Assembly: GCF_000092105.1 (NCBI RefSeq)
Contig: NC_014148.1
Span: 660,001-692,000 of the forward strand
Length of the DNA stretch: 32,000 bases
Source of the DNA: Planctopirus limnophila DSM 3776
Lineage (GTDB): Bacteria > Planctomycetota > Planctomycetia > Planctomycetales > Planctomycetaceae
Direction of reading: 5' to 3'
The notes beneath the pieces are model-generated. The model was not told where the DNA came from. It searched no databases and saw only the letters and a program-made list of their open reading frames with translations. Of the stretch, positions 9,064-20,385 are shown in pieces. A program made the position numbers and the translations under genes. Position 1 is the stretch's first letter. Each line of letters starts with the position of its first letter.

Positions 9064-9636
9064 GATCTGCGCTTGTGCCCGTGCCGTGTTCTGATCGGCC
9101 CGATACGCTTCCTGCAATAATTGCCTGAAACGGTCTGCAAAAGGGACGGCGTGCAATCGAAGTGGCTCTGCAGCCGCTCGTGACCTGATGACGATATCGC
9201 TGGATCGATAAAACGATTGAAAGCTCGCTGGATCGACCTGGATTTCAGTGACTTCACTCCAGGGGATCTGCGTCACGATGTGCCGTGTGAGTATGGTTTC
9301 AATGACCACGCCCGAGGTTGTGACCACATAGCGAACTCCCCGCAATTTGAGCCATACATACGCGATGATGGCGATGGGCCAGGTCGGCGGTATCCACACC
9401 AGATACGACAGCCGGATTCTGGGTGTGATATGTGGCAGGCTCTCGTACAACTTTCCCAGGTATTTTCCAATCGTGGTGCAGGCGATGGAAGGATAGACCG
9501 CCTCCAGTCGCTCTTCGTCATCTGTGGAAAAATTGGAAGTTGGGGAGTTCATCAGACACTTGAGTGACAAAAGGTAAAGTGCATAGATCTCGTCACGAAA
9601 CTGATTCCACATTGAGTCTCCCGAAATCCTGCCCAT
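9010..9636 (-). CDS. Membrane protein with a bacterial PH (bPH_2/YdbT-like, DUF304-type) domain
   Basis: 208-aa ORF. A hydrophobic hairpin (LSYLVWIPPTWPIAIIAYVWL) is followed by RGVRYVVTTSGVVIETILTRHIVTQIPWSEVTEIQVDPASFQSFYRSSDIVIRS, which fits the recalled bPH_2 pattern. Confidence 0.6.
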   Translation of the reverse strand: MGRISGDSMWNQFRDEIYALYLLSLKCLMNSPTSNFSTDDEERLEAVYPSIACTTIGKYLGKLYESLPHITPRIRLSYLVWIPPTWPIAIIAYVWLKLRGVRYVVTTSGVVIETILTRHIVTQIPWSEVTEIQVDPASFQSFYRSSDIVIRSRAAAEPLRLHAVPFADRFRQLLQEAYRADQNTARAQAQISNRARARQLASAIPPQE

Positions 9637-9699
9637 CGGGCAAGCCTGCCGGGAGGAAACGGGATCATTGTTTCGATGGCATTCGTTTCGCAGAGAGAG

Positions 9700-10323
9700 T
9701 CAGTGACGTCCGCGAGGAGGCTCGGCAATGACCAGTTTCTGCATGCAGATCTGGCCCAGACGGGCCACCAGAGATCTGGCCGTCAAAGTTGAATGAATTG
9801 TCTCGGGTTGTTCAGCAACTTCCGGCTGAATTGAATCTATGGGGTGCACAAAAGAAGCCAGTTGAAACGTCTTGAACTCGCCAGATTCAAGGCAATCCAG
9901 CAGTGCAAAAGTCTCCGTCAACTGCTGCGAATTGCTTGCCAGAAAACTGTGAAGTTCTGCCTCGTTAAGGTCATGACGCAGCAGTGATGTCTCATGCGGA
10001 TTTCTATGACGTGTCAAGCGAGACAATGTCCCACCCTGAGCGCGATACAGACAGGGTTCAACATACGCACGGCGAAGCTGATTCATTTCATTGAACTGCA
10101 CCATCCACGATTGATCCCAATAAATCGAGAGCCAGTCGTTAGCCCGCGTTCCGATAAGAATTTCTTTGACGCTCTGAAGTCGAGCGGGTGCAGGATCATC
10201 CAGATCATCACTGTGCTGACAATTCGCCGGGTGATCCGGTCGAATGCGCTTCCATAGCGCACGTGATGTCAGTGCAATCGCTTCAGAGAAAAGATCGTCG
10301 TGATCTGCTTCCTGCCGGGCCAT
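9700..10323 (-). CDS. Hypothetical protein (207 aa)
   Basis: The ORF extends to 10536, but that extension overlaps the 3' end of the upstream dsbD-like gene (stop at 10464) in another frame. The first non-overlapping ATG is at 10323 (MARQEADHDDLF...). No family recognised. Confidence 0.55.
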   Translation of the reverse strand: MARQEADHDDLFSEAIALTSRALWKRIRPDHPANCQHSDDLDDPAPARLQSVKEILIGTRANDWLSIYWDQSWMVQFNEMNQLRRAYVEPCLYRAQGGTLSRLTRHRNPHETSLLRHDLNEAELHSFLASNSQQLTETFALLDCLESGEFKTFQLASFVHPIDSIQPEVAEQPETIHSTLTARSLVARLGQICMQKLVIAEPPRGRH

Positions 10324-10463
10324 AGATTGCTGACTCGTCACCAGTGAGACAATTTGTCCGAGGATAACCTTGCGAGAAAGTTCATTACGAACTGTAGCCG
10401 TTGTTCCAGGGAGCAAACACAGACGTTTGATTCCAGATACGACGCAGATCCTCAGCGGAAAAT

Positions 10464-13310
10464 CTATCGCCGTTCGACAGATGCAGGTTCTTTGCTCGCC
10501 ACCTGCTTCGCTTTCCACTTCTCGAAGCGATTCCACCCCTTATCAAGAAACGCAGCAAACTCACCCTCTTTACGTTCAAGACCCTTATAGACCGCCAGAA
10601 TGGTTTTTCCATCCGGCGAAACCACCGCATACGATGGCAGTGAAACATCGCCAAACCACTTCACCTGGAGATCGATATTGCGATCGCGCAGGCTCTCGGC
10701 GTAATCCGCATCGGTGATGTGTGGTACGCGATCAGCAAACAATTGCGTCGCCAGAAATCGCTCCAGTCGGGAATGATTATCCGGTAGCTTCATCTTCTGC
10801 TCCATCAGTCGGCAATTGACACAATTCACACCGGTGAAGTCAAAGAACAGCGGCTGTTGCTTCGATTTCGCCAAGGACAGCGCACGATTCACATCGAGTG
10901 CAAACGGAATTCCATCATGCACCATCACCGGGCCGAGTTCCTCAGTCTCTTTGAAGCCTTGCTTTAATTGAGGCGGTGCAAAGGCCAGGATCTGCGGCAT
11001 CAAGGCACCCCCTGATTTTTCCGGAGTCAGCACGCCCACCATTAGAAAAAGCGAAAGCCCCAGAAACGTTGTCCCGGCCAACGCCTGCAAGGGAGAAATT
11101 CGATCCTGTGGCTGATCATGCGACAGATGGAATATCCCCAGCAGATACAAGCCCGCAGTAATGGCCAGCACACTCCAGGCCACCATCACAAAGGCAAAAT
11201 CAAAGAGCATCGGCTGTGGATTCAGCGACAGATCCGCCACGCTGAAGAACTTGATTGCCGCCCCAATTTCCACAAACCCCAACACCACCTTCAACGTAAA
11301 GAGCCAGCCGCCGCTCTTAGGAAGCTTGCGCAGCATGCTCGGGAAGAGTGCCAGCAGAAAGAACGGCATCGCAAAAGCCGTCGAAAAAGCCAGCATCCCC
11401 AGGATCGGCCAGAACACGTTCCCTTGAGATGCCGCCACGAGAATTGTCCCTGCCACGGGAAAGGTGCAGGTAAACGATGTCAGCGTGAAGGTTAACGCCA
11501 TAAAGATTACACCCAGATACCCACCGGCAGCTTCCTGATTGGCGGTGTATGTGAGCAGCCACGATGGCGGCTGAATTTCAAACAATCCCAGCATGCTCAG
11601 ACCAAAAGCGACAAAGATCGCCCCGATCGCAAAATTCATCCAGGGATTATTAGCCAGTTGTGTCAGGAATGTGGCTCCAAAGATCAGCGAAAGGCCAACG
11701 CCAAGTAACGTAAAGGTGCCAATAATGGCCAGGCAGTAAACGACGGCTAAGCCAACCGATTTCCCATGCCCCTGCTTGAGGAAAAATCCGACGGTAATCG
11801 GCACCATCGGAAATGCACAAGGGGTCAGCAAAGCCAGCCATCCCGCCAGAAAGGCTGTCAACAGGTAACCCAAAGTCCCTGCCGCTGCGGATGACTCTTC
11901 CTGAGCATCGCCATCATCTTCCCAGAAGGTCACTCCACTTAAAGCACCCGCCTGACTGGCGCTGGTTTCTGCTGTCCCCGTCGTGGATTCGCGAGTGGAT
12001 TCCTCGGGTGGAACGGGTGCTTTTGTATTCCCCGTTTCAGCAGGAGAGCCGCGTTCTTGAGGCAAGGCTTCGACACCAGCGCGGGATGGTTCCTGCATTC
12101 CCAGAGCCAGTTTGAACTTGGGCATGGGCACACACGAGCCCTGAGTACAGGCCTGTGAATGCACAATGGCTTTCAAGCCATACGCTCCGGGGGTTTGCCC
12201 TGCGTTGACCACAAAAGGTTTCGTCCAGGTGACGCGATCATGATAAACCTCCAGTGGCCCACCGGCTCCCGGCTCGATTTCATGGGGATGATCTGCCACA
12301 AACGGGCCCGCTTCCGAAAGGCCATTCAATTGTTCGAAATCAACAACTGTGGCCGAGCCTCCAAATCCGTCGGGTTGCGTCATTGAGAAAGTGTGGTATT
12401 TGGGATCGATCTTCGCGGTGAGGACAAGTTCGACCTTCTCGCCCGGTTTGGCATTTTCCGGGGTCAGCTGTGCAGTGAATTCGATTGGCTGAGGCTTCAC
12501 GCCACGCTTAAGTCGCTCGGTCACACGAAAAGGAAGCATTTGTGCTGGGGCGGGCTGTTCGACTGTGGTTGTGGTGCTCGCCTTAGCCGCCATGCGCTCC
12601 GGGATGTTTCCTTCGAGCTTAGTCGAGAATTTGATGGCCGGAATAATTGGCAGGCATTGCCCACCTTCACCGGCGCTGCAGTATTGTCCTTCGAGCCCAC
12701 CGCTGATGACCAGGTTTTTGAGATCGACAGTCGGGGCGATATTCAACACCTGCGTCCATGTCGCTGAATCGTGAAGTTTGAAAAGATCGACTCCAAAGAG
12801 TGGTTCAAAGATCTTCTGTGGTGGTTTTGCAGAGACAAATGCACCAGCCGCAGTTACCCCTTCTGGAAGCTTGGTACGAATCTGGGTGCGGCCCTCAAAC
12901 TTGCCTTGCACATCGTAAATATAGTGCCCTTCCGGCAGCACGACGGTCACACTGAGTTGTGCCTGGAGGTGTTGTGCCTGGAGTCCGCTCGCCTGTTCTG
13001 GAAGCAGTATCAATTGAGCTGAGACTTCCGGTTTGGCGGCAGCTCCACCCAATAGCGAATCACCTGCCGAATCGCCAAAGAGATCATCAAACTGTGCCTG
13101 TGCCGTGATTGGGAAAACCAGCACCGCGAGAACCACGGCAGACAATTTCCAAAGGCTCTGCCAGAGCCCATGGCTGGTGTTATGGCGGCCCTTCACGACA
13201 CTTGGTCGATGGAAATCAAGGCAATCAATTTCCGAGTGATTGGAATAATCCGCGTGCTTTGAATCGCAGTGATCAGTCTGGGCAGGCTGGGATGTTGCGG
13301 CATAGGGCAT
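10464..13310 (-). CDS. dsbD: DsbD-like thiol:disulfide interchange protein / protein-disulfide reductase with an enlarged N-terminal region
   Basis: The central CcdA/DsbD membrane core carries two Cys motifs (LLTPCAFPMVPIT and TSFTCTFPVAGT). The C-terminal thioredoxin fold has a CxxC motif (FDFTGVNCVNCRLME). Two N-terminal DsbD-alpha-like modules end in Cys pairs (QYCSAGEGGQCLP and SQACTQGSCVPMP). The ORF opens with TTG at 13361; the first ATG is at 13310. Confidence 0.8.
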   Translation of the reverse strand: MPYAATSQPAQTDHCDSKHADYSNHSEIDCLDFHRPSVVKGRHNTSHGLWQSLWKLSAVVLAVLVFPITAQAQFDDLFGDSAGDSLLGGAAAKPEVSAQLILLPEQASGLQAQHLQAQLSVTVVLPEGHYIYDVQGKFEGRTQIRTKLPEGVTAAGAFVSAKPPQKIFEPLFGVDLFKLHDSATWTQVLNIAPTVDLKNLVISGGLEGQYCSAGEGGQCLPIIPAIKFSTKLEGNIPERMAAKASTTTTVEQPAPAQMLPFRVTERLKRGVKPQPIEFTAQLTPENAKPGEKVELVLTAKIDPKYHTFSMTQPDGFGGSATVVDFEQLNGLSEAGPFVADHPHEIEPGAGGPLEVYHDRVTWTKPFVVNAGQTPGAYGLKAIVHSQACTQGSCVPMPKFKLALGMQEPSRAGVEALPQERGSPAETGNTKAPVPPEESTRESTTGTAETSASQAGALSGVTFWEDDGDAQEESSAAAGTLGYLLTAFLAGWLALLTPCAFPMVPITVGFFLKQGHGKSVGLAVVYCLAIIGTFTLLGVGLSLIFGATFLTQLANNPWMNFAIGAIFVAFGLSMLGLFEIQPPSWLLTYTANQEAAGGYLGVIFMALTFTLTSFTCTFPVAGTILVAASQGNVFWPILGMLAFSTAFAMPFFLLALFPSMLRKLPKSGGWLFTLKVVLGFVEIGAAIKFFSVADLSLNPQPMLFDFAFVMVAWSVLAITAGLYLLGIFHLSHDQPQDRISPLQALAGTTFLGLSLFLMVGVLTPEKSGGALMPQILAFAPPQLKQGFKETEELGPVMVHDGIPFALDVNRALSLAKSKQQPLFFDFTGVNCVNCRLMEQKMKLPDNHSRLERFLATQLFADRVPHITDADYAESLRDRNIDLQVKWFGDVSLPSYAVVSPDGKTILAVYKGLERKEGEFAAFLDKGWNRFEKWKAKQVASKEPASVERR

Positions 13311-13838
13311 ATTCAGAATCCGCTCAGCAATGGGGGGAGGGCAGCAGCGATTATGTGTCAATTGGGGCAGGTTGAAAAATGACAGTCTGCCCCCGGTTAG
13401 ATCTCTGTTTGAAAATCCGGGAACAGACTTTTCAATATTTCCTTCAGTTTAGCGTAAACCTTACAAAAAATGGGTTCAACCCTTGGGTTTCTGACAAGTT
13501 CTCCGACAAACAATGCATGAGTTGTGCCAATTGATCCCATCCGCATCTGCAGCCGGTTCATTTGAACTCAACCAGAATCGAACTTTTGAAGAAGATCATG
13601 TTTCGCCTGTCGATAGAACTTGTCAGCACTCCTTCAGCGCGCTACCATTTTCGCAGCCTGCAAAGGTTTGTGCATCCCCTGCGGTGTGCGTGATGAGCCG
13701 AATGCGTTGACCCTACAATCATTGTTTCGGATGTCGGATCCGTCTGGCCGCGTGTATATCCGATGCTGCGAATGCAGCCTCTCGGCTCACACAACCCGGG
13801 CGTTCGGCATCCACCTGAACATTAAGGGTTCAGATAAC

Positions 13839-14130
13839 CATCAGTGCTCACACGGCTCGCGCGGAGGTTGCACTTTTTTGTTTGCGGGGCGGCCTCTGAG
13901 GCGGCGTTGATGGCAACATTGATCATCCAATCGCTCTCAACCGGCAGCCCCTGGTTCAGTTTGCAGGGCCGCCTCCGACGCAGGGTCAACGGGAGTTCCA
14001 TCAACCAATGACTCTCAACCGGCAGCCTCTGGTTTTGTTTGTGGGGCCTGCGTCTGGCAAGTCTTTGTTGGGTGGATGCTAATCCACCAATTCAGTTGCT
14101 CCTCAACACTTGTTACTCACTCCACCTCTG
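13839..14130. repeat. Degenerate tandem repeat, three units of ~75-85 bp plus a partial fourth, in the dsbD-rarA intergenic region
   Basis: Units start near 13839, 13924, 13999 and 14081. The best-conserved block is CTCTCAACCGGCAGCC(C/T)CTGGTT at 13934-13956 and 14012-14034 (22/23 identical, 78 bp apart), followed by a GTTTG(C/T)(A/G)GGGCC-like motif that also occurs around 13880-13895. Confidence 0.7.
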
Positions 14131-14210
14131 GCGTGAAGCCTCACCATAGACTCTTCCACTGACCATGCCATAATGGCGAGGGAACAAGTCTTCCACATGC
14201 CAGGTGATCC

Positions 14211-15509
14211 ATGTCTCTCTTTGCCAGTATTGAGGCGTCGCATCTTGAGGATGCCAAGCCACTCGCTGCCCGGATGCGTCCACGGAACCTCAACGAGTTC
14301 ATCGGGCAGTCACATGTCCTGGGAGAAGGGACGCTCCTCCGGCGAATGTTGATTGCCGATCGCATTCATTCTGTCGTCTTCTATGGCCCGCCCGGCGTCG
14401 GAAAGACAACTCTCGCTGAACTCATCGCCAAAAGCTCAAAGCGGCGATTCATCGCACTCAATGCCGCTGCCACCGGTGTCAAGGAACTGCGAGAAGCTCT
14501 TGATGAATCCCGCGAGCGGCTCAAATCGAGCGGCACGAAAACACTGCTCTTTGTCGACGAACTGCATCATTTCAACAAGCAGCAACAGAATGTGCTGTTG
14601 CCCGATGTCGAACAGGGAGTTGTCTCCTTAGTGGCTGCCACGACGGCCAATCCCTTCTTCGCACTGATTGCTCCGCTTCTCAGCCGTAGCCAGATCTTTG
14701 AATTGAAGCCGCTCTCTACGGAAGAAATCAAAGCCGTTCTACGTCAGGCTTTATCCGATGAGACGCGAGGTTACGGCCAGAAAAACCTGAAAGTTCCCGA
14801 AGAAGTCTTTGATTTCCTGGCAGCCAGTAGCGATGGCGACGCACGCAGGGCGCTTTTAGCTCTCGAAATCGCTGTCGAATCGTTAGATTCCCGGGTTCTG
14901 GAACTCACCCTCGAAATCGCACAGGAATCGCTGCAAAAGAAGGCCATTCGTTACGACAAAAGTGGTGATGATCACTACGACGTCATCAGTGCGTTTATCA
15001 AGAGCATGCGTGGCAGTGATGCCGATGCGACAATTTACTGGCTGGCCCGCATGTTGGAAGCTGGAGAAGAGCCCCGCTTTATTGCCCGCCGGATTGTGAT
15101 TGCCGCCAGTGAAGATGTGGGCATGGCCGATCCTCAGGCACTGGTTGTCGCGATGGCTGCCGCTCAGGCACTCGAGATGATCGGCATGCCAGAAGGCCGA
15201 ATTCCTTTAGCACAAGCGGCGATCTATGTCGCCACGGCTCCAAAATCGAACGCCTCTTACAATGCGATCAACCAGGCACTGAGCGACATTCAGAAACAAT
15301 ACATTCTGCCAGTCCCGAATCATTTGCGGGATGGCCACTATCCCGGTGCTAAACGCCTGGGCCATGGTGAAGGTTACCAGTATCCTCACGATGCCCCAGA
15401 CGGCTGGGTCAAGCAGGATTACCTGACGGAGCCTCGAAGCTATTACACACCCACGGATCGCGGCTATGAACAGGAGGTTTCTCGCCGTCGGCAACGGCAA
15501 GGCGACTAA
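14211..15509 (+). CDS. rarA: Replication-associated recombination protein A (RarA/MgsA AAA+ ATPase)
   Basis: Walker A motif GPPGVGKTTLA and Walker B motif LLFVDELHHF are present, along with the MgsA C-terminal motifs DDHYDVISAFIKSMRGSDADATIYWLARMLEAGEEPRFIARR and ...GYQYPHD.... Confidence 0.95.
   Translation: MSLFASIEASHLEDAKPLAARMRPRNLNEFIGQSHVLGEGTLLRRMLIADRIHSVVFYGPPGVGKTTLAELIAKSSKRRFIALNAAATGVKELREALDESRERLKSSGTKTLLFVDELHHFNKQQQNVLLPDVEQGVVSLVAATTANPFFALIAPLLSRSQIFELKPLSTEEIKAVLRQALSDETRGYGQKNLKVPEEVFDFLAASSDGDARRALLALEIAVESLDSRVLELTLEIAQESLQKKAIRYDKSGDDHYDVISAFIKSMRGSDADATIYWLARMLEAGEEPRFIARRIVIAASEDVGMADPQALVVAMAAAQALEMIGMPEGRIPLAQAAIYVATAPKSNASYNAINQALSDIQKQYILPVPNHLRDGHYPGAKRLGHGEGYQYPHDAPDGWVKQDYLTEPRSYYTPTDRGYEQEVSRRRQRQGD
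15406..15469 (+). repeat. Left copy of the imperfect 64-bp direct repeat (native 3' end of the current rarA reading frame)
   Basis: Hand alignment to 18700-18763 gives 59/64 identical positions. The 49-bp core 15406-15454 carries a single mismatch at 15434. Confidence 0.85.
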
Positions 15510-15538
15510 ACATCTTTGGTGCGGAGAATTACTACCGA

Positions 15539-16057
15539 TCAAGATTTCACTTTTGCCACGCACTGCGATCCGCGTTCAAATTGTTGAGTGGCGGCCGTCA
15601 CTTCGGCCTGGAAACCACGTTGCCGGAGATTTGCATGACATCGGAGAGCCTGCTGCGGATGATCATCTTTCTGAACGTAGGGAGCGTCCTGGCAGAGGCG
15701 TGTTTCGCCGATCCGCCCGCTCCGGCGGTTGTCCCTGCCGGTGAAGACTCCGTCGCGGCCTTTATCAAGATCGACATCCTCGCCCGACAGACCTGCACCG
15801 GACTGGGTGCCTGCCAGGGTGCCGCTCTGCATGATCACGGGTCGGGCAGGTTGCCCCGGAACGAGTGATGTCTTGTCGGCTCGCCGCTGTTGGACGCGGA
15901 AGCAGGTGACAACAATTTTCTGCGAATTCCAGTTTTCTCCGCAACGTGGAACGTTCCGCATGTATCCAAAGAGTAACATCCCCTGCTGGCCACCACGACG
16001 GGCAGACGTTAGCCTTCTCAGGTCGTGGCCGGGACAACAAGTGTCAGACACGATCAA
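15539..16057 (-). CDS. Doubtful hypothetical ORF (172 aa) in the cargo block
   Basis: This is the longest ORF in 15510-16104. Plus-strand ORFs 15581-15868 and 15729-16187 overlap it. A hand count of codon-position GC and purine bias over 120 nt only slightly favours the minus frame. No family recognised. Confidence 0.3.
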   Translation of the reverse strand: MIVSDTCCPGHDLRRLTSARRGGQQGMLLFGYMRNVPRCGENWNSQKIVVTCFRVQQRRADKTSLVPGQPARPVIMQSGTLAGTQSGAGLSGEDVDLDKGRDGVFTGRDNRRSGRIGETRLCQDAPYVQKDDHPQQALRCHANLRQRGFQAEVTAATQQFERGSQCVAKVKS

Positions 16058-16104
16058 GTGGTACGAGAACGATCTGATGCGACAACAGATGAGAAGGATC
16101 TGCC

Positions 16105-16803
16105 ATGCGTGCGGTTTTGGCGCTAATGATCACCTTCATATCGCTGATGGGCTACGGTTGTGGCGCGATCAAAGAGACTGCACCTGAGCGTTCCTCCACC
16201 ACGGTGACAACCCACGAGGGTGGGGCCGACGTTGATTCCTCCGTCATCACGTTCCACGACGAGGTCATCAGTCAGGACACCCCGGTTGTGGAGCTGTCAA
16301 GCCTCGAACTCACGACGCCCGACGGGAAACCCGTTCGGTTGAGTGACTTTCTTAAAACTGGCAATCTTGTGGTCGTAGTCACGAGCGGCTACGCCGGTTC
16401 GATCTGTCCGGTCTGTTCGACACAGACTTCGAGGTTCATCGCCAACCATGAGGCGATCAAGTCGCGCGGTGCCGAAGTCGTAGTGATCTATCCGCTCGGC
16501 AGTGAAAACGATCGCTCCCGCAGCGGCGAATTTCTGGCAGCCGCGAACAAACGGGTCGCGTTGGCTCCCGGCGCTCAACCTTCCTTCCCCTTGTTAGTAG
16601 ATGTGGGGCTGAAAGTGGTCGACCTTTTGGGTATTCGCCAGGATTTATCGAAACCCGCGACCTACATTCTGGATCGAACCGGCGCGATTCGCTTTGCTTA
16701 TGTGGGCGAGAGTATGGCTGACCGTCCCTCGGTCCAGGCGATCCTGCGGCAACTGGATACCCTCAACACATCGATGACGAACGCCGCCCGGGTGGGCACA
16801 TAG
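16105..16803 (+). CDS. Thioredoxin-fold redoxin (AhpC/TSA-like) lipoprotein with a CPVC active site
   Basis: The N-terminus MRAVLALMITFISLMGYG/C carries a lipobox-type signal. The redoxin core is LVVVVTSGYAGSICPVCSTQTSRFIANHEAIKSRGAEVVVIYP. Confidence 0.75.
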   Translation: MRAVLALMITFISLMGYGCGAIKETAPERSSTTVTTHEGGADVDSSVITFHDEVISQDTPVVELSSLELTTPDGKPVRLSDFLKTGNLVVVVTSGYAGSICPVCSTQTSRFIANHEAIKSRGAEVVVIYPLGSENDRSRSGEFLAAANKRVALAPGAQPSFPLLVDVGLKVVDLLGIRQDLSKPATYILDRTGAIRFAYVGESMADRPSVQAILRQLDTLNTSMTNAARVGT

Positions 16804-16866
16804 CGTTAAACCGCTTTCTCCGAACCAGACATCGCTACGATGCAAGCTCCGCGAGGTTGATGCCAG

Positions 16867-18684
16867 ATGCCACTGGATGACGAGTTCCTTGCAGTCGCGG
16901 TTCGGAACGGTTTGTTGGAGCAAGTCGTTGCTGACCAGTTGGGAGCTTTGTCGGCAAGCTCTGGCATCTCTTCGGCACAAGCAGCACTCAACGCCGGCCG
17001 ACTTTCACATGACCAGATCGATGTCATCGAAGCTCTGAGAAGTCCTTTGGATCAGATTCCGGGTTATGAGCTGCTGTCGCTCCTCGGACAGGGAGGCATG
17101 GGCGTCGTCTACAAGGCTCGGCAGTTAGCGTTCGACCGCATCGTAGCCCTGAAGCTCGTGCGGAGCGGATCTGCTTCAAGTACGGCGGTCGCCCGCTTTG
17201 AAAATGAGATCCGCACCATTGGCAGCTTTTCCCATCCGCATATCGTGACCGCCTTCGATTCGGGAAAGCATGCCGGTCGACTGTATCTTGCCATGGAGTA
17301 TCTTGATGGCCAAGACGCTGAGGTCTTCATCCCTAAGGAAAGGTTTCTCCCCGAAAGGATCGTCTGGGGGATGATCCGTCAGGTCGCGACAGGCTTGGCG
17401 TACGCCGCCGAGCGGGGAGTCACGCATCGCGACATCAAACCGGCGAACCTGTTGCTGGTGACGCCGCCGAGCGGATATCCCCTCCCTGAGGGTGTTCCGT
17501 TCGTCAAAATCGCGGACTTCGGACTCGCCCTCCTGCAGGAGGATTTTGACGCGCAAACCCGCCTGACGAGGGAAAACGCCGCCGTGGGCAGCCCACACTA
17601 CATGTCTCCCGAACAAATCATGGGTTCCCAGGTCGGCTTGAAGTCCGACATCTATGCGCTGGGAGCCACGGCCTATCATCTGCTCTGCGGCCACCCCCCC
17701 TATCATGGCTACACGTTGACGCAGATCTATTCGCGAAAAATGCTTCGGGATCCTGCGGCGTTGAGGGAACTCCGCCCCGGACTTTCCGCCGATTCGGTCT
17801 CACTCGTCGAGAGGATGATTCACCGTGAAGAGACCGAGCGGCCCAACGACTACGCGACCCTGCTCCATCGAATCGACACAATCCAACAGTCGACAGACCC
17901 TGCCGGAGTGTCGGCGTCGATCCCACAGAGGTCATCTGCCACACCAGGAACCTCCCCGGATCGATACCGCCATTCACTCGTTGCATGGTCTCGCCGCCTG
18001 ATGACCATTTCCGCGATTGTCGTCGGGCTGGCTGCCATCGCCGCCGGGTTCTGGTGGTCTCTGCCGATCAACCCCAAATTGACCGGGCCGAGGAATTGGC
18101 AAGCTACGGGCTGGGTTCGACAATGTTTCGATGGTGCGTCGCTCAATGGATGGCGTACGATTCGTGGAGCCTGGGTACCCGGCGCGAAGGATGAGGAAGG
18201 AGGATTCGTCTTATCGGGAAGAGGTGCCTTGGGATATCCCCTCGCCAAACCTGTGAACGGTGGCATGATGCGACTGGACGGCTTTCGCCTCTCCGTCCTA
18301 TGGCAGAGACAGAGCGCGCAGATCGTTGAGCTGCAATTTCCGGAGGAGCCGTCGGCCCGGCACGGCGAAACCCGGTCGATGGTCTTTCAAGCGACTCCCG
18401 ACTCGATCCGCTGGGGCCGTCGAATGCTCCCGACAGGAAGTCTGGAGACAGTTTTCGCGGAGCGGTTCATCACTCTGCCCGCCGATTCGGTTCACGAACT
18501 GCGCGTCGAATTCCAGGGTGGGGAGTGGTTGGCGTACCTCGACGGACAACTCTTCGGGAGTTCCCCTTCCGGCCCCTTGCCATCTAATGAGTTCCGTCTG
18601 GTCGCCGAAGTGGATCCGGGTGACGCCGAGGGGGCGGCGTGGTTCAGCGACATCTTGCTGGAGGAACTCGGGCCGCCAATTTGA
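16867..18684 (+). CDS. Transmembrane Ser/Thr protein kinase with an extracytoplasmic C-terminal beta-rich domain (DUF1080/LamG-like impression)
   Basis: Hanks kinase motifs are present: GQGGMGVVYKA, VALK, HRDIKPANLL, ADFGLA and SPHYMSPEQ. One TM helix is present (LMTISAIVVGLAAIAAGFWW). The ~210-aa C-terminal domain includes WRTIRGAWVP...FRLSV...ELRVEFQGGEWLAYLDG. Confidence 0.9.
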   Translation: MPLDDEFLAVAVRNGLLEQVVADQLGALSASSGISSAQAALNAGRLSHDQIDVIEALRSPLDQIPGYELLSLLGQGGMGVVYKARQLAFDRIVALKLVRSGSASSTAVARFENEIRTIGSFSHPHIVTAFDSGKHAGRLYLAMEYLDGQDAEVFIPKERFLPERIVWGMIRQVATGLAYAAERGVTHRDIKPANLLLVTPPSGYPLPEGVPFVKIADFGLALLQEDFDAQTRLTRENAAVGSPHYMSPEQIMGSQVGLKSDIYALGATAYHLLCGHPPYHGYTLTQIYSRKMLRDPAALRELRPGLSADSVSLVERMIHREETERPNDYATLLHRIDTIQQSTDPAGVSASIPQRSSATPGTSPDRYRHSLVAWSRRLMTISAIVVGLAAIAAGFWWSLPINPKLTGPRNWQATGWVRQCFDGASLNGWRTIRGAWVPGAKDEEGGFVLSGRGALGYPLAKPVNGGMMRLDGFRLSVLWQRQSAQIVELQFPEEPSARHGETRSMVFQATPDSIRWGRRMLPTGSLETVFAERFITLPADSVHELRVEFQGGEWLAYLDGQLFGSSPSGPLPSNEFRLVAEVDPGDAEGAAWFSDILLEELGPPI

Positions 18685-18695
18685 CACGCCCTGTG

Positions 18696-18820
18696 GCCGG
18701 GTCAAGCAGGATTACCTGACGGAGCCCCGAAGCTATTACACACCCACCGGACGCGGGTATGAGGCGGTCGTACTTCAGCGACTCATCGAGCGAAATGAAT
18801 CAGGTCGTTCTCGATCCTGA
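18696..18820 (+). pseudogene. rarA: Detached rarA 3'-end fragment (displaced C-terminal coding remnant)
   Basis: It translates to G-R-VKQDYLTEPRSYYTPTGRGYEAVVLQRLIERNESGRSRS* and has no start codon of its own. The ORF-track entry 18326-18820 is this remnant fused to out-of-frame kinase sequence. Confidence 0.7.
18700..18763 (+). repeat. Right copy of the imperfect 64-bp direct repeat
   Basis: It aligns to 15406-15469 at an offset of 3294 bp and encodes VKQDYLTEPRSYYTPTGRGYE in the rarA-equivalent frame. Confidence 0.85.
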
Positions 18821-18983
18821 AAAGTATGGGATGGGTTCCATTGAGATGCCCGGGTCGTTGCGGGCTTTGTGTAAAGAGTAGTCGCATATCATCAATCCAA
18901 TTTGCTAAATCTTCATGCGTCTGAAGTCTTTCGACTGGCACGGAATTCATGAACTCGGCAAGATTCCTGAAGCAGGTCTTCAC
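18783..18983 (-). CDS. Doubtful small ORF (66 aa)
   Basis: It is the only ORF of 60 aa or more in the 18821-19095 gap apart from 18915-19109(+). It overlaps the tail of the rarA remnant. No family recognised. Confidence 0.2.
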   Translation of the reverse strand: MKTCFRNLAEFMNSVPVERLQTHEDLANWIDDMRLLFTQSPQRPGHLNGTHPILFRIENDLIHFAR

Positions 18984-19095: not shown

Positions 19096-20385
19096 ATGAA
19101 CGTTGTTGATCGTCGTCAGTTTCTTGGCTTAACGCTCAGTGCGGCAGCCTTCAGTGCTGCCTCAAATCTACTCCCATTCGACGACCGCTATGCCCACGGC
19201 AAAGTTCTCGGTGCGGACGGGATGCCTGTCTCACCGCAGGTCGAGGGGCCGGAAACGATGTTTCTCACATGGCCGGGAGATCCGACATCGACCATCTGCA
19301 TTCAATGGGTCGATCAGGATCACGGAAACGAACTTGAGATCGCCTACTCTCCACTGGAAAGTGACAACTGGCAGATCGCCAAGGTCACAACAAAGCCTTT
19401 CCCGATGACGAAAGATAAAGTCTACCGTGCCAGTATTTCGTCACTTCAACCGGGGACAGAGTATCGATTTCGTATGGGGGCCGATGCTCCCACGTTCCGC
19501 TTTCGAACCATGCCCAAAAAGCTGACTGATACCTTTCACTTTGTCTCAGGTGGTGATGCGGGAACAGGCAGCCATGCAATCGGAACTAATCAACTTGCAG
19601 CCCGGCAGGAACCTTACTTTGCTCTCCTTGCCGGCGATCTCGCTTACGACAACGGTAAATCGCCCCGAACCTTTATAAAATTCCTGAAGAACTACCGAGC
19701 TCACATGGTTGACCCCCAGGGCCGGCTCATTCCGCTGCTGGCCTGTCCAGGAAACCATGAAGTCGATGGTGCTTATAAACAGCCCCGTGAAAAGGCGGGC
19801 TCCTACCTCTCGGTCTTCGACTGTTTTTTTCCGGATACGACCTACGGTGTCTACGATATCGGTGATGACTTCAGCCTTGTATTGCTCGATACCGATCATA
19901 TTTCGCCCATCGAAGGGGAACAGACGTCATGGCTCGAAAAAACACTGGCCGCACGACAAGACAAAAAACATCTCTTTGTGGCCAATCATGTCCCCGCTTA
20001 TCCATCGTATCGAGCTGCCAATATCGACAGCGATAAGCCGGGAACGGGGGCTGCCCAGCGAAAACTCTGGTGCCCGCTCTTTGAACGCTACAACGTCGAT
20101 GTCGTTCTGGAACATCACGACCATCTCTTCAAACGGTCACATCCTTTAACCGATGGCAGAAAAGATAAATATGGCGTCCCTTACTTAGGTGATGGTTCGT
20201 GGGGGATGTTGCGGCCCCTCAAAGAACCCGAGTTGCGGCCCTACCTGGCCAAGGTCAGTTCGTCATACCATATGACGGCGCATCATCTCGAAGGAGACGA
20301 ACGGTTTCATATCGCACTTGAAGAGAATGGCCGGATTGCCGATGTCTGCATGACCAGAAATAAACGTGCTGCCCGAAGAGGATGA
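19096..20385 (+). CDS. Tat-exported metallophosphoesterase (purple-acid-phosphatase-like)
   Basis: A twin-arginine signal MNVVDRRQFLGLTLSAAAFSAAS is present. The calcineurin-like motifs are GGDAG, GDLAYDNG, GNHE and EHHDH, preceded by an N-terminal FN3/PAP-N-like segment. Confidence 0.85.
   Translation: MNVVDRRQFLGLTLSAAAFSAASNLLPFDDRYAHGKVLGADGMPVSPQVEGPETMFLTWPGDPTSTICIQWVDQDHGNELEIAYSPLESDNWQIAKVTTKPFPMTKDKVYRASISSLQPGTEYRFRMGADAPTFRFRTMPKKLTDTFHFVSGGDAGTGSHAIGTNQLAARQEPYFALLAGDLAYDNGKSPRTFIKFLKNYRAHMVDPQGRLIPLLACPGNHEVDGAYKQPREKAGSYLSVFDCFFPDTTYGVYDIGDDFSLVLLDTDHISPIEGEQTSWLEKTLAARQDKKHLFVANHVPAYPSYRAANIDSDKPGTGAAQRKLWCPLFERYNVDVVLEHHDHLFKRSHPLTDGRKDKYGVPYLGDGSWGMLRPLKEPELRPYLAKVSSSYHMTAHHLEGDERFHIALEENGRIADVCMTRNKRAARRG

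Follow-up and report, generated by a model that had tools for sequence, protein, structure and literature searches.

A non-autonomous islet carrying a surrogate rarA 3′ end in Planctopirus limnophila, probably inserted by a Campbell-type crossover

Why does the 3′ end of rarA occur twice in the chromosome of Planctopirus limnophila DSM 3776, with three other genes lying between the two copies? The window analysed here is the whole 32,000-nt stretch of that genome at positions 660,001 to 692,000 of contig NC_014148.1, and a reading of its sequence alone (hereafter the sequence-only reading) had described the block between the copies as a GC-rich cargo inserted in rarA and bracketed by an imperfect direct repeat. 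We suggest that the block is a non-autonomous islet flanked by repeats of the attachment-site (att) kind, and that it was probably inserted by a Campbell-type crossover, after which its flanks were converted to the local alleles. The intact form of the islet is ∼4.0 kb long, and that of the window is 3.2 kb after an internal deletion.

A repeat search of the window placed the direct repeat at 15402-15469 and 18695-18762, with 62 matches over 68 nt (91% identity). The left copy matched the rest of the window at E = 2.8e-23 (blastn), and the next-best ungapped placement of the left 68-mer anywhere in the window reached only 35/68, which supplies the formal significance estimate that had been called for. 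The sequence-only reading had given a 64-bp repeat with 59 matches and a 49-nt core with one mismatch. Both counts stand (59/64 and, on re-alignment, 48/49) with the right copy at 18699-18762, but at 18700-18763, where that copy had been placed, only 19 of the 64 positions match. Because the counts are reproduced only with this shift, the offset between the copies is 3293 bp and not 3294 bp (3 × 1098); the copies are nonetheless in the same codon register. As had been claimed, the right copy is open in the rarA frame as far as the stop at 18818-18820, and removal of 3293 bp in silico yields a 438-aa RarA ending in ...GYEAVVLQRLIERNESGRSRS, which is identical to the RarA of relatives at 429-432 of its 438 positions. 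The weak similarity seen upstream of the repeat (HDAPDGW versus FDTPCGR) is a real, decayed extension of it (18683-18700), and this stretch overlaps the stop codon of the kinase gene by 2 nt. We number positions in the rarA segment from the G of GTCAAG (position 0; 15408 in the left copy and 18701 in the right copy). In all copies of the islet the rarA-derived segment ends at +62 and the islet begins at +63, which is 15471 in the window. A contrast in GC content between block and surroundings is also real, but its size had been overstated: the islet has 58.9% GC against 53.7% in the rest of the window, and rarA (54.7%) and the downstream phosphoesterase gene (52.6%) lie above the 45-50% given before. 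GC content at third codon positions (GC3) separates the two better than total GC, with 0.67-0.68 for the islet genes and 0.52-0.63 for neighbouring genes of the window.

Related loci were gathered by a RarA protein scan with one genome per species, and further occupied sites were reached via cluster members. The loci fall in lineage W, which is that of the window (∼54% GC), and in lineage M, a second Planctopirus lineage (∼60% GC) that includes the metagenome-assembled genome (MAG) DS3.3.33. Empty sites, which the sequence-only reading had proposed to look for, are present in five close relatives and bear out an insertion into the 3′ end of rarA. In L001 (MAG D1_MAG_00040) and L002 (P. hydrillae), the counterpart of window 9076-15469 joins that of 18699 onward and a single copy of the segment is present, and L170 and L174 are two more empty sites, each contiguous across the junction with one segment copy. 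At empty sites the phosphoesterase gene lies directly 3′ of rarA. As expected for attL and attR, there is thus a 68-nt repeat of the target sequence together with unoccupied sites in L001, L002, L170, L174 and L169. Which of the two rarA tails is ancestral had been left undecided, and the relatives now point to the right-hand one. Because the RarA proteins of empty-site relatives all end in ...TGRGYEAVVLQRLIERNESGRS.., the right-hand tail is the native and ancestral one, and the left-hand tail arrived with the insert. The RarA of P. ephydatiae is also 438 aa long and has the native tail. As a separate observation, L170 (GCA_006365015.1, VFQR01000603; 10001-11299) has a premature stop in its native RarA tail, after ...AVVQQRLIQRNE, and its RarA is 432 aa long, which equals the length of the islet-bearing form purely by coincidence.

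The left-hand tail was then compared with RarA proteins at large. More than 100 RarA C-termini from Planctomycetaceae follow the pattern G[FY]E[AQK]E[LIV]x[RK]R[LM]..., for example EKEISRRL and EQEIRARM. After ...GYE, the occupied loci read QEVSRRRQRQGD in the window, HEISRRRQRQGD in L171, QEISRRKQQRDG in L173 and ..SRRKQQRDG in the MAG, and this islet tail (EQE[VI]SRR...) matches the family consensus better than the native Planctopirus tails EAVVLQRL and EARIIERL do, to which it is unrelated at the nucleotide level. Because it fits the family and yet is unrelated to the native tails, it is a genuine, foreign surrogate of the RarA C-terminus. The earlier proposal that the incoming DNA brought its own 3′ end of the target gene agrees with this, the left tail EQEVSRRRQRQGD being closer to the Planctomycetaceae consensus than the native one. 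As with the surrogate 3′ ends of integrative elements, the target gene is kept intact and the tail has the same length in all copies. The cargo, on the other hand, did not come from a rarA neighbourhood that we could trace. The closest homologues of its secreted protein, here called X329 (329 aa when intact), have 64-69% identity and lie in unrelated contexts without rarA nearby, and the closest pairs of AhpC and kinase genes, at 60% identity, lie in other Planctomycetaceae beside a vWA-domain gene (L086), again without rarA nearby. Among 80 rarA loci outside Planctopirus, none has an AhpC or kinase gene adjoining rarA, and none has a second rarA 3′ fragment or a partial 3′ duplication. The idea that the cargo is the natural rarA neighbourhood of a donor thus finds no support, and from these contexts the cargo looks composite.

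Comparison of the occupied loci argues that the islet is mobile. In MAG DS3.3.33, it occupies the same site and has the same right boundary as in the window. Contig L003 of this MAG breaks off inside rarA where the repeat starts, and contig L085 continues with the surrogate tail, an intact X329 gene, the AhpC and kinase genes, a second rarA 3′ fragment with the native tail of the M lineage, and the phosphoesterase gene. The assembly breaks on either side of the left repeat copy, with ∼60 nt missing, which hints at a repeat or at a mixed population of occupied and empty sites. In L169, a relative of the MAG in lineage M, rarA is followed directly by the phosphoesterase gene, that is, the site is empty. 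Between the window and the MAG, nucleotide identity is 79% in the flanks and 92-93% in the islet, and synonymous divergence (dS) reaches 1.63 in rarA and 1.90 in the phosphoesterase gene, as against 0.11 in AhpC and 0.22 in the kinase gene. Because the dS of the islet genes (0.11-0.22) is so far below that of the flanking genes (1.6-1.9) of the same two hosts, the islet has moved horizontally between the two Planctopirus lineages. Within lineage W, the islets of L171 and L172 are 98.6% identical to that of the window (dS between window and L171: rarA 0.138, AhpC 0.017, kinase 0.043), and a third variant, at ∼92% identity to the copies of the window and of the MAG alike, occupies the site in L173. 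The closest relative of L173 by rarA, at 98.4% identity, is the empty L170. Hence, the islet moves between and within lineages, or is repeatedly lost.

Over all copies, the GC3 of the islet is 0.67-0.72, compared with 0.52-0.63 in W core genes and 0.76-0.80 in M core genes. Because it is intermediate between the two, this value suggests that the islet is foreign to both lineages. Lineage M was considered as a simple donor and rejected: the match in total GC (59% versus 60%) does not extend to GC3, and neither lineage has a tail of the surrogate type. In L168 (Logan SRR25993461, lineage M), a different insertion of ∼3.26 kb (11293-14549) separates the stop of an intact rarA from the phosphoesterase gene and holds a DUF1559/N-methyl pseudopilin-like gene and two hypothetical genes. 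Direct repeats were sought around the L168 insertion and none was found. Within the genus Planctopirus, the DNA separating rarA from the phosphoesterase gene appears to be a site of variation.

The borders of the islet record how the flanks were changed. A site was taken as diagnostic if all four empty W genomes had one base there and all M genomes another. In the left flank (rarA through +62, plus 6 nt beyond) there are 196 such sites, and the window has the M state at all four of +47, +49, +50 and +62 but at only 4 of the 192 sites outside this patch, scattered further upstream in rarA. In the right flank (-24 onward; 243 diagnostic sites), the M state is found at -16, -10 and -8, and the sequence is W-type from +11 except for 4 scattered sites. 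M-type remnants are present at both inner edges of the islet, 16 nt on the left (15455-15470) and ∼11 nt on the right (∼18683-18693), and between them both segment copies of the window are W-type. The right copy of the MAG is M-type from -9, and the left copy of L173 is W-type up to +62. The window and L171 have the islet and the patch in common, yet at +20, +26 and +29, which are polymorphic among W alleles, their bases differ. Since different W alleles are thus found in a shared islet context, allelic conversion does occur. In the mosaic of the window the left junction lies at about +42..+46 and the right one at about -8..+11, the latter within a 16-nt block, GGCTGGGTCAAGCAGG (-7..+8), which is the longest stretch near the islet that is identical in W and M. 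Because the two junctions do not coincide, one fixed reciprocal crossover alone cannot yield this mosaic, whereas a crossover with later allelic conversion is compatible with it. These borders do not support the ‘site-specific’ integration that had been put forward, because the repeat copies are host-type in both lineages and other-lineage sequence is confined to 16 nt on the left and ∼11 nt on the right.

No dedicated enzyme or carrier was found for the islet. As the sequence-only reading had stated, none of the window open reading frames (ORFs) of at least 150 aa, over all 32 kb, has a recombinase, transposase or excisionase domain (Pfam), nor is a recombinase domain on record for the called genes of the related loci, the MAG copy included. 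No integrase, excisionase or remnant of either is present in the four islet copies or beside them. The recombinase beside an att site that defines the integrase-encoding class is thus missing. No helper, that is, no integrative and conjugative element (ICE) or integrative and mobilizable element (IME), stands in tandem at the rarA site in the window or in 12 related loci, and the 80 other rarA loci, as noted, show no second rarA 3′ fragment. An insertion sequence, a transposon and a miniature inverted-repeat transposable element were rejected, since there are no terminal inverted repeats at 15471 or 18684, the duplication (63-81 nt) is not short, and a transposase is absent. A prophage, a satellite and a plasmid-borne module were rejected because the islet has no match in plasmid, phage or viral contig collections.

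From these observations, the following course of events is proposed. A secreted protein gene, an AhpC-like redoxin gene and a Ser/Thr kinase gene would have been joined to foreign last codons of rarA on a circular incoming DNA, which would have entered by a single Campbell-type reciprocal crossover between the 3′ end of the chromosomal rarA and a rarA-like segment on the circle, most likely within the 16-nt block at -7..+8. By this route rarA would come to end in the islet-borne tail, its native tail and terminator would be stranded 3.3 kb downstream, and the cargo would be bracketed by a direct repeat of 63-81 nt of rarA sequence. The enzymes would act in trans, because the islet encodes no recombinase. 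The islet has since passed between the two Planctopirus lineages and among strains within each. Ordinary homologous recombination would then have replaced the flanking rarA with local alleles as far as the islet borders, and the left copy in the window with W alleles until homology to an empty allele runs out. The undescribed capture mechanism that the sequence-only reading had entertained is not needed, since a single crossover and ordinary allelic recombination explain the data. Spread within W needs only recombination in the flanking genes, which are 93-96% identical there, but the step between lineages, with flanks 76-79% identical, is hard to explain in this way.

RecA-type recombination would serve this scenario no better and no worse than an integrase in trans with its overlap region in the conserved block. 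As the enzymatic basis, recombination by the host alone, homologous or through short homology, is quite possible; a tyrosine integrase supplied in trans or since lost is a more tentative choice, and other routes, such as replication template switching, are rather unlikely. The specialised surrogate tail, the composite cargo and the invariant boundaries favour a site-specific enzyme, whereas the four copies without integrase or remnant, the empty place of a helper at the site and the absence of plasmid, phage or viral counterparts disfavour one. Several points weigh against the proposed crossover and conversion. Because the MAG assembly has a gap where its left repeat copy should lie, only half of the structure is visible in the second lineage. 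Neither a circular form nor a product of excision was observed, and the three read-set assemblies of the strain are all occupied. A clean three-gene cargo without an integrase remnant is unusual for a decayed integrative element, and it is hard to see how an 81-nt internal rarA fragment and a foreign rarA tail came to lie on unrelated genes without a site-specialised element. RecA-type recombination over 63-81 nt at 79% identity would, moreover, be very inefficient.

Alternatively, the repeats would be true attL and attR, and the islet would have been placed, and would still be moved, by a site-specific tyrosine integrase that recognises the 3′ segment of rarA and is encoded by a helper element elsewhere in the genome or has since been lost. 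The islet would then resemble the cis-mobilizable elements (CIMEs), which are a recognised class (PMC6323972, PMC5704250), and integrase-driven islands are classically recognised by just such a replacement 3′ end of the target gene. Three islet variants, ∼8% apart in sequence, have the same outer boundaries, as do the copies in the two host lineages; the composite cargo is not a donor's rarA neighbourhood; and W and M agree throughout the 16-nt block that holds the right junction, which an overlap region would require. We nevertheless hold this explanation to be possible without preferring it, because none of the four copies has an integrase, an excisionase or a remnant in it or beside it, no tandem helper was seen at the site in the 12 related loci, and partial 3′ duplications are absent from the 80 other rarA loci. 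The repeat arms, moreover, follow the host lineage and not the islet, and a fixed crossover point would need later conversion here too. The window's exact mosaic, a host-type segment on either side with donor-type remnants only at the inner edges, could also arise in one event of microhomology-mediated template switching, in which a nascent strand leaves the recipient rarA at CCCAC, copies the donor patch, the islet and the inner remnant, and returns to the recipient at GGGTCAAGCAGG, ∼54 nt behind its exit, so that the host segment is duplicated without crossover or circle. Both junctions do lie in short identity blocks. We regard this as improbable: it leaves the origin of the surrogate tail and of the first duplication unexplained, L173, whose left copy is host-type up to the islet, needs a different switch point, and the alleles that differ between the window and L171 inside the duplicated segment require later allelic conversion anyway.

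It could be argued instead that the occupied arrangement is ancestral in Planctopirus and that ‘empty’ relatives lost the block by recombination between the repeats, with no horizontal movement at all. The site and boundaries are the same in two deep lineages, direct repeats of 63-81 nt can support precise deletion, and the pair of L170 (empty) and L173 (occupied), 98.4% identical in rarA, fits recent loss as well as gain. This reading is nonetheless very improbable: the islet genes show about a tenth of the inter-lineage dS of the flanking genes, their GC3 is unlike that of either host, the stranded native tail has stayed intact and hardly differs from the tail that functions in relatives, and M-type patches border the islet within a W-type genome. 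Some empty sites may still be secondary losses. An assembly artefact or a chance repeat comes up only because the MAG assembly breaks at the repeat, and its probability is negligible. The RarA protein of the window is an exact match to ADG66385.1/WP_013108816.1 of P. limnophila DSM 3776; exact matches of RarA and the kinase were found only in DSM 3776 and three read-set assemblies thereof, and the structure is hence not an artefact of assembly, the occupied arrangement being present in these three independent assemblies and in a 5.42-Mb record. The significance of the repeat given above likewise argues against chance. Crossover followed by flank conversion therefore remains the explanation that we prefer. 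Whether the islet is also a mobile unit independent of any dedicated recombinase, excised between its flanking repeats and re-inserted by short homology into genomes with a similar rarA, seems doubtful.

The features of the locus are collected in Table 1.

Table 1. Features of the rarA islet and its surroundings in the window (window coordinates; negative and positive offsets count from position 0 of the rarA segment)
Feature	Position	Strand	Remarks
Chimeric rarA, 432 aa	14211..15509	+	Native body, then 16-nt other-lineage patch, then islet-borne surrogate tail; Pfam MgsA_C, AAA_assoc_2, AAA
Left (attL-like) copy of the rarA 3′ segment	15402..15470	+	-6..+62
Patch GGATCGCGGCTATGAA (TDRGYE), M-lineage rarA type	15455..15470	+	Abuts the islet; 15/16 versus native M rarA (L168, L169), 11/16 versus native W
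Islet proper, 3214 bp	15471..18684	+	Surrogate RarA tail and three co-oriented cargo genes; absent from L001, L002, L170, L174
Islet-borne surrogate RarA C-terminus QEVSRRRQRQGD and stop	15471..15509	+	Fits family tail consensus; in all four islet copies, same length
X329 remnant, 77 aa	15635..15868	+	Rest of the gene for a 329-aa secreted protein after an in-frame deletion of ∼757 bp
AhpC/TSA-Redoxin family protein, 232 aa	16105..16803	+	Pfam AhpC-TSA 8.6e-16, Redoxin 7.6e-12
Hanks-type Ser/Thr protein kinase, 605 aa	16867..18684	+	Pfam Pkinase 4.5e-47
Decayed inner start of the right rarA fragment, GACACGCCCTGTGGCCGG	18683..18700	+	-18..-1; M-lineage state at -16, -10, -8
Right (attR-like) copy of the rarA 3′ segment	18695..18763	+	Host (W-lineage) type from ∼+11 onward
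Stranded native RarA tail AVVLQRLIERNESGRSRS and stop	18764..18820	+	Now non-coding; in P. ephydatiae, P. hydrillae and three other relatives it is the working tail of the 438-aa RarA
Terminator-like hairpin and T run of native rarA, GCCCGGGTCGTTGCGGGC	18848..18875	+	Kept in empty-site relatives; now 3′ of the kinase gene
Purple-acid-phosphatase-like phosphoesterase gene	19096..20385	+	Pfam; conserved right-hand neighbour, outside the islet

The first cargo gene is intact at L085 158-1147 in MAG DS3.3.33, and in the window the 77-aa ORF fuses the signal peptide and N-terminus of X329 to its last 10 residues, a deletion common to the window and L171. X329 has no match in Pfam, NCBIfam or PADLOC and is without a family assignment; one homologue carries the UniRef label glutamine cyclotransferase. 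A 172-aa minus-strand ORF at 15539-16057 had been named as a recombinase candidate, but it has no Pfam match and is spurious, since it lies over the plus-strand X329 remnant, whose gene is intact in the MAG. The 164-aa ORF at 18326-18820 was also set aside; it has no Pfam match and is merely the stranded rarA frame read back through the 3′ end of the kinase gene. The C-terminus of the kinase, LEELGPPI, is natural, as homologues stop at the same position, and the C-terminal region of ∼200 aa, which follows a transmembrane-like stretch, has no Pfam match. The kinase matches the PADLOC models PD-T4-6 and mad6 kinase at 1e-67 to 1e-69. A defence-system reading was rejected, because these matches reflect generic similarity among Hanks kinases and the two partner proteins have no PADLOC matches. 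A metagenome scan with the kinase was equally uninformative, returning only generic kinases with 31-42% identity, and one of the search patterns was a common kinase motif. Because the islet genes point the same way as rarA and the former rarA hairpin has come to lie behind the kinase gene, the cargo may be transcribed together with rarA as a single unit from the rarA promoter. Upstream of rarA, the spacer that separates it from DsbD (13876-14048) holds two copies of a 49-nt repeat, 78 nt apart (13922-13970 and 14000-14048, 84% identical), and a partial third copy at 13876-13890, with secondary, offset blastn matches in L001.

Integration of non-replicating circular DNA by homologous recombination, known as Campbell-type integration, duplicates the shared segment on both sides, and homology-facilitated illegitimate recombination is reportedly a further route during natural transformation. 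The islet is like such cases in the duplicated segment, the lack of a dedicated recombinase and the junctions in short identity blocks. It is unlike them, as laboratory or one-off events, in that its boundaries are identical in several hosts and it provides a functional surrogate gene end. The integrative mobile elements exploiting Xer (IMEX) use the host XerCD recombinases at dif; like them, the islet is a mobile block without its own recombinase that would rely on host enzymes, but its site is inside rarA and not at dif, and no dif-like site was identified, although none was specifically tested for. CIMEs are integrase-less, att-flanked islands found mainly beside ICEs in Streptococcus and catalogued in ICEberg 2.0 (PMC6323972, PMC5704250). 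Like a CIME, the islet is att-flanked without recombination and conjugation or transfer genes, its direct repeats derive from the 3′ end of a conserved gene, and it is present in some and absent from other close strains. Unlike CIMEs, it was not seen to share its site with any helper ICE or IME and retains no trace of an integration module, and its repeat arms follow the host lineage; a Planctomycetota host and a rarA target were not found among the described cases. Tyrosine-integrase islands at the 3′ ends of protein genes, such as Salmonella genomic island 1 (SGI1) at trmE and the islands that target dusA, also provide a surrogate 3′ end (PMC8409611). The islet resembles these in sitting in the last codons of a housekeeping gene, in supplying a replacement tail and in having a long identity segment at both ends. 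It differs in that it has no integrase or excisionase gene, which is defining there, and in that it is only 3-4 kb long with three ordinary cargo genes. We found no report in the literature of rarA as an attachment site, of islands in Planctopirus or of this islet. Taken together, the islet is a further example of non-autonomous genomic islets, a known kind of passive islet, and not a new mechanism.

Mobile elements of Planctomycetota are poorly charted, and the islet offers a clean case from nature: both lineages have occupied as well as empty sites, and three variants have diverged. If it were a recombinase-independent unit, a species barrier of ∼21-24% nucleotide divergence would have been crossed with host recombination enzymes only, and the unit would rely on a short, highly conserved piece of rarA, a gene of an essential process, together with a working replacement tail. 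If no integrase is involved, the locus would be a useful test case of how far horizontally transferred DNA can land on short conserved stretches of genes and nothing else, and as P. limnophila DSM 3776 is a cultured strain, it is in principle open to experiment. The borders illustrate, moreover, how population-level recombination erases the traces of a donor to within a few nucleotides of the insert. For Planctopirus, the islet indicates that a few ordinary genes can travel between species while the housekeeping gene that they interrupt stays functional.

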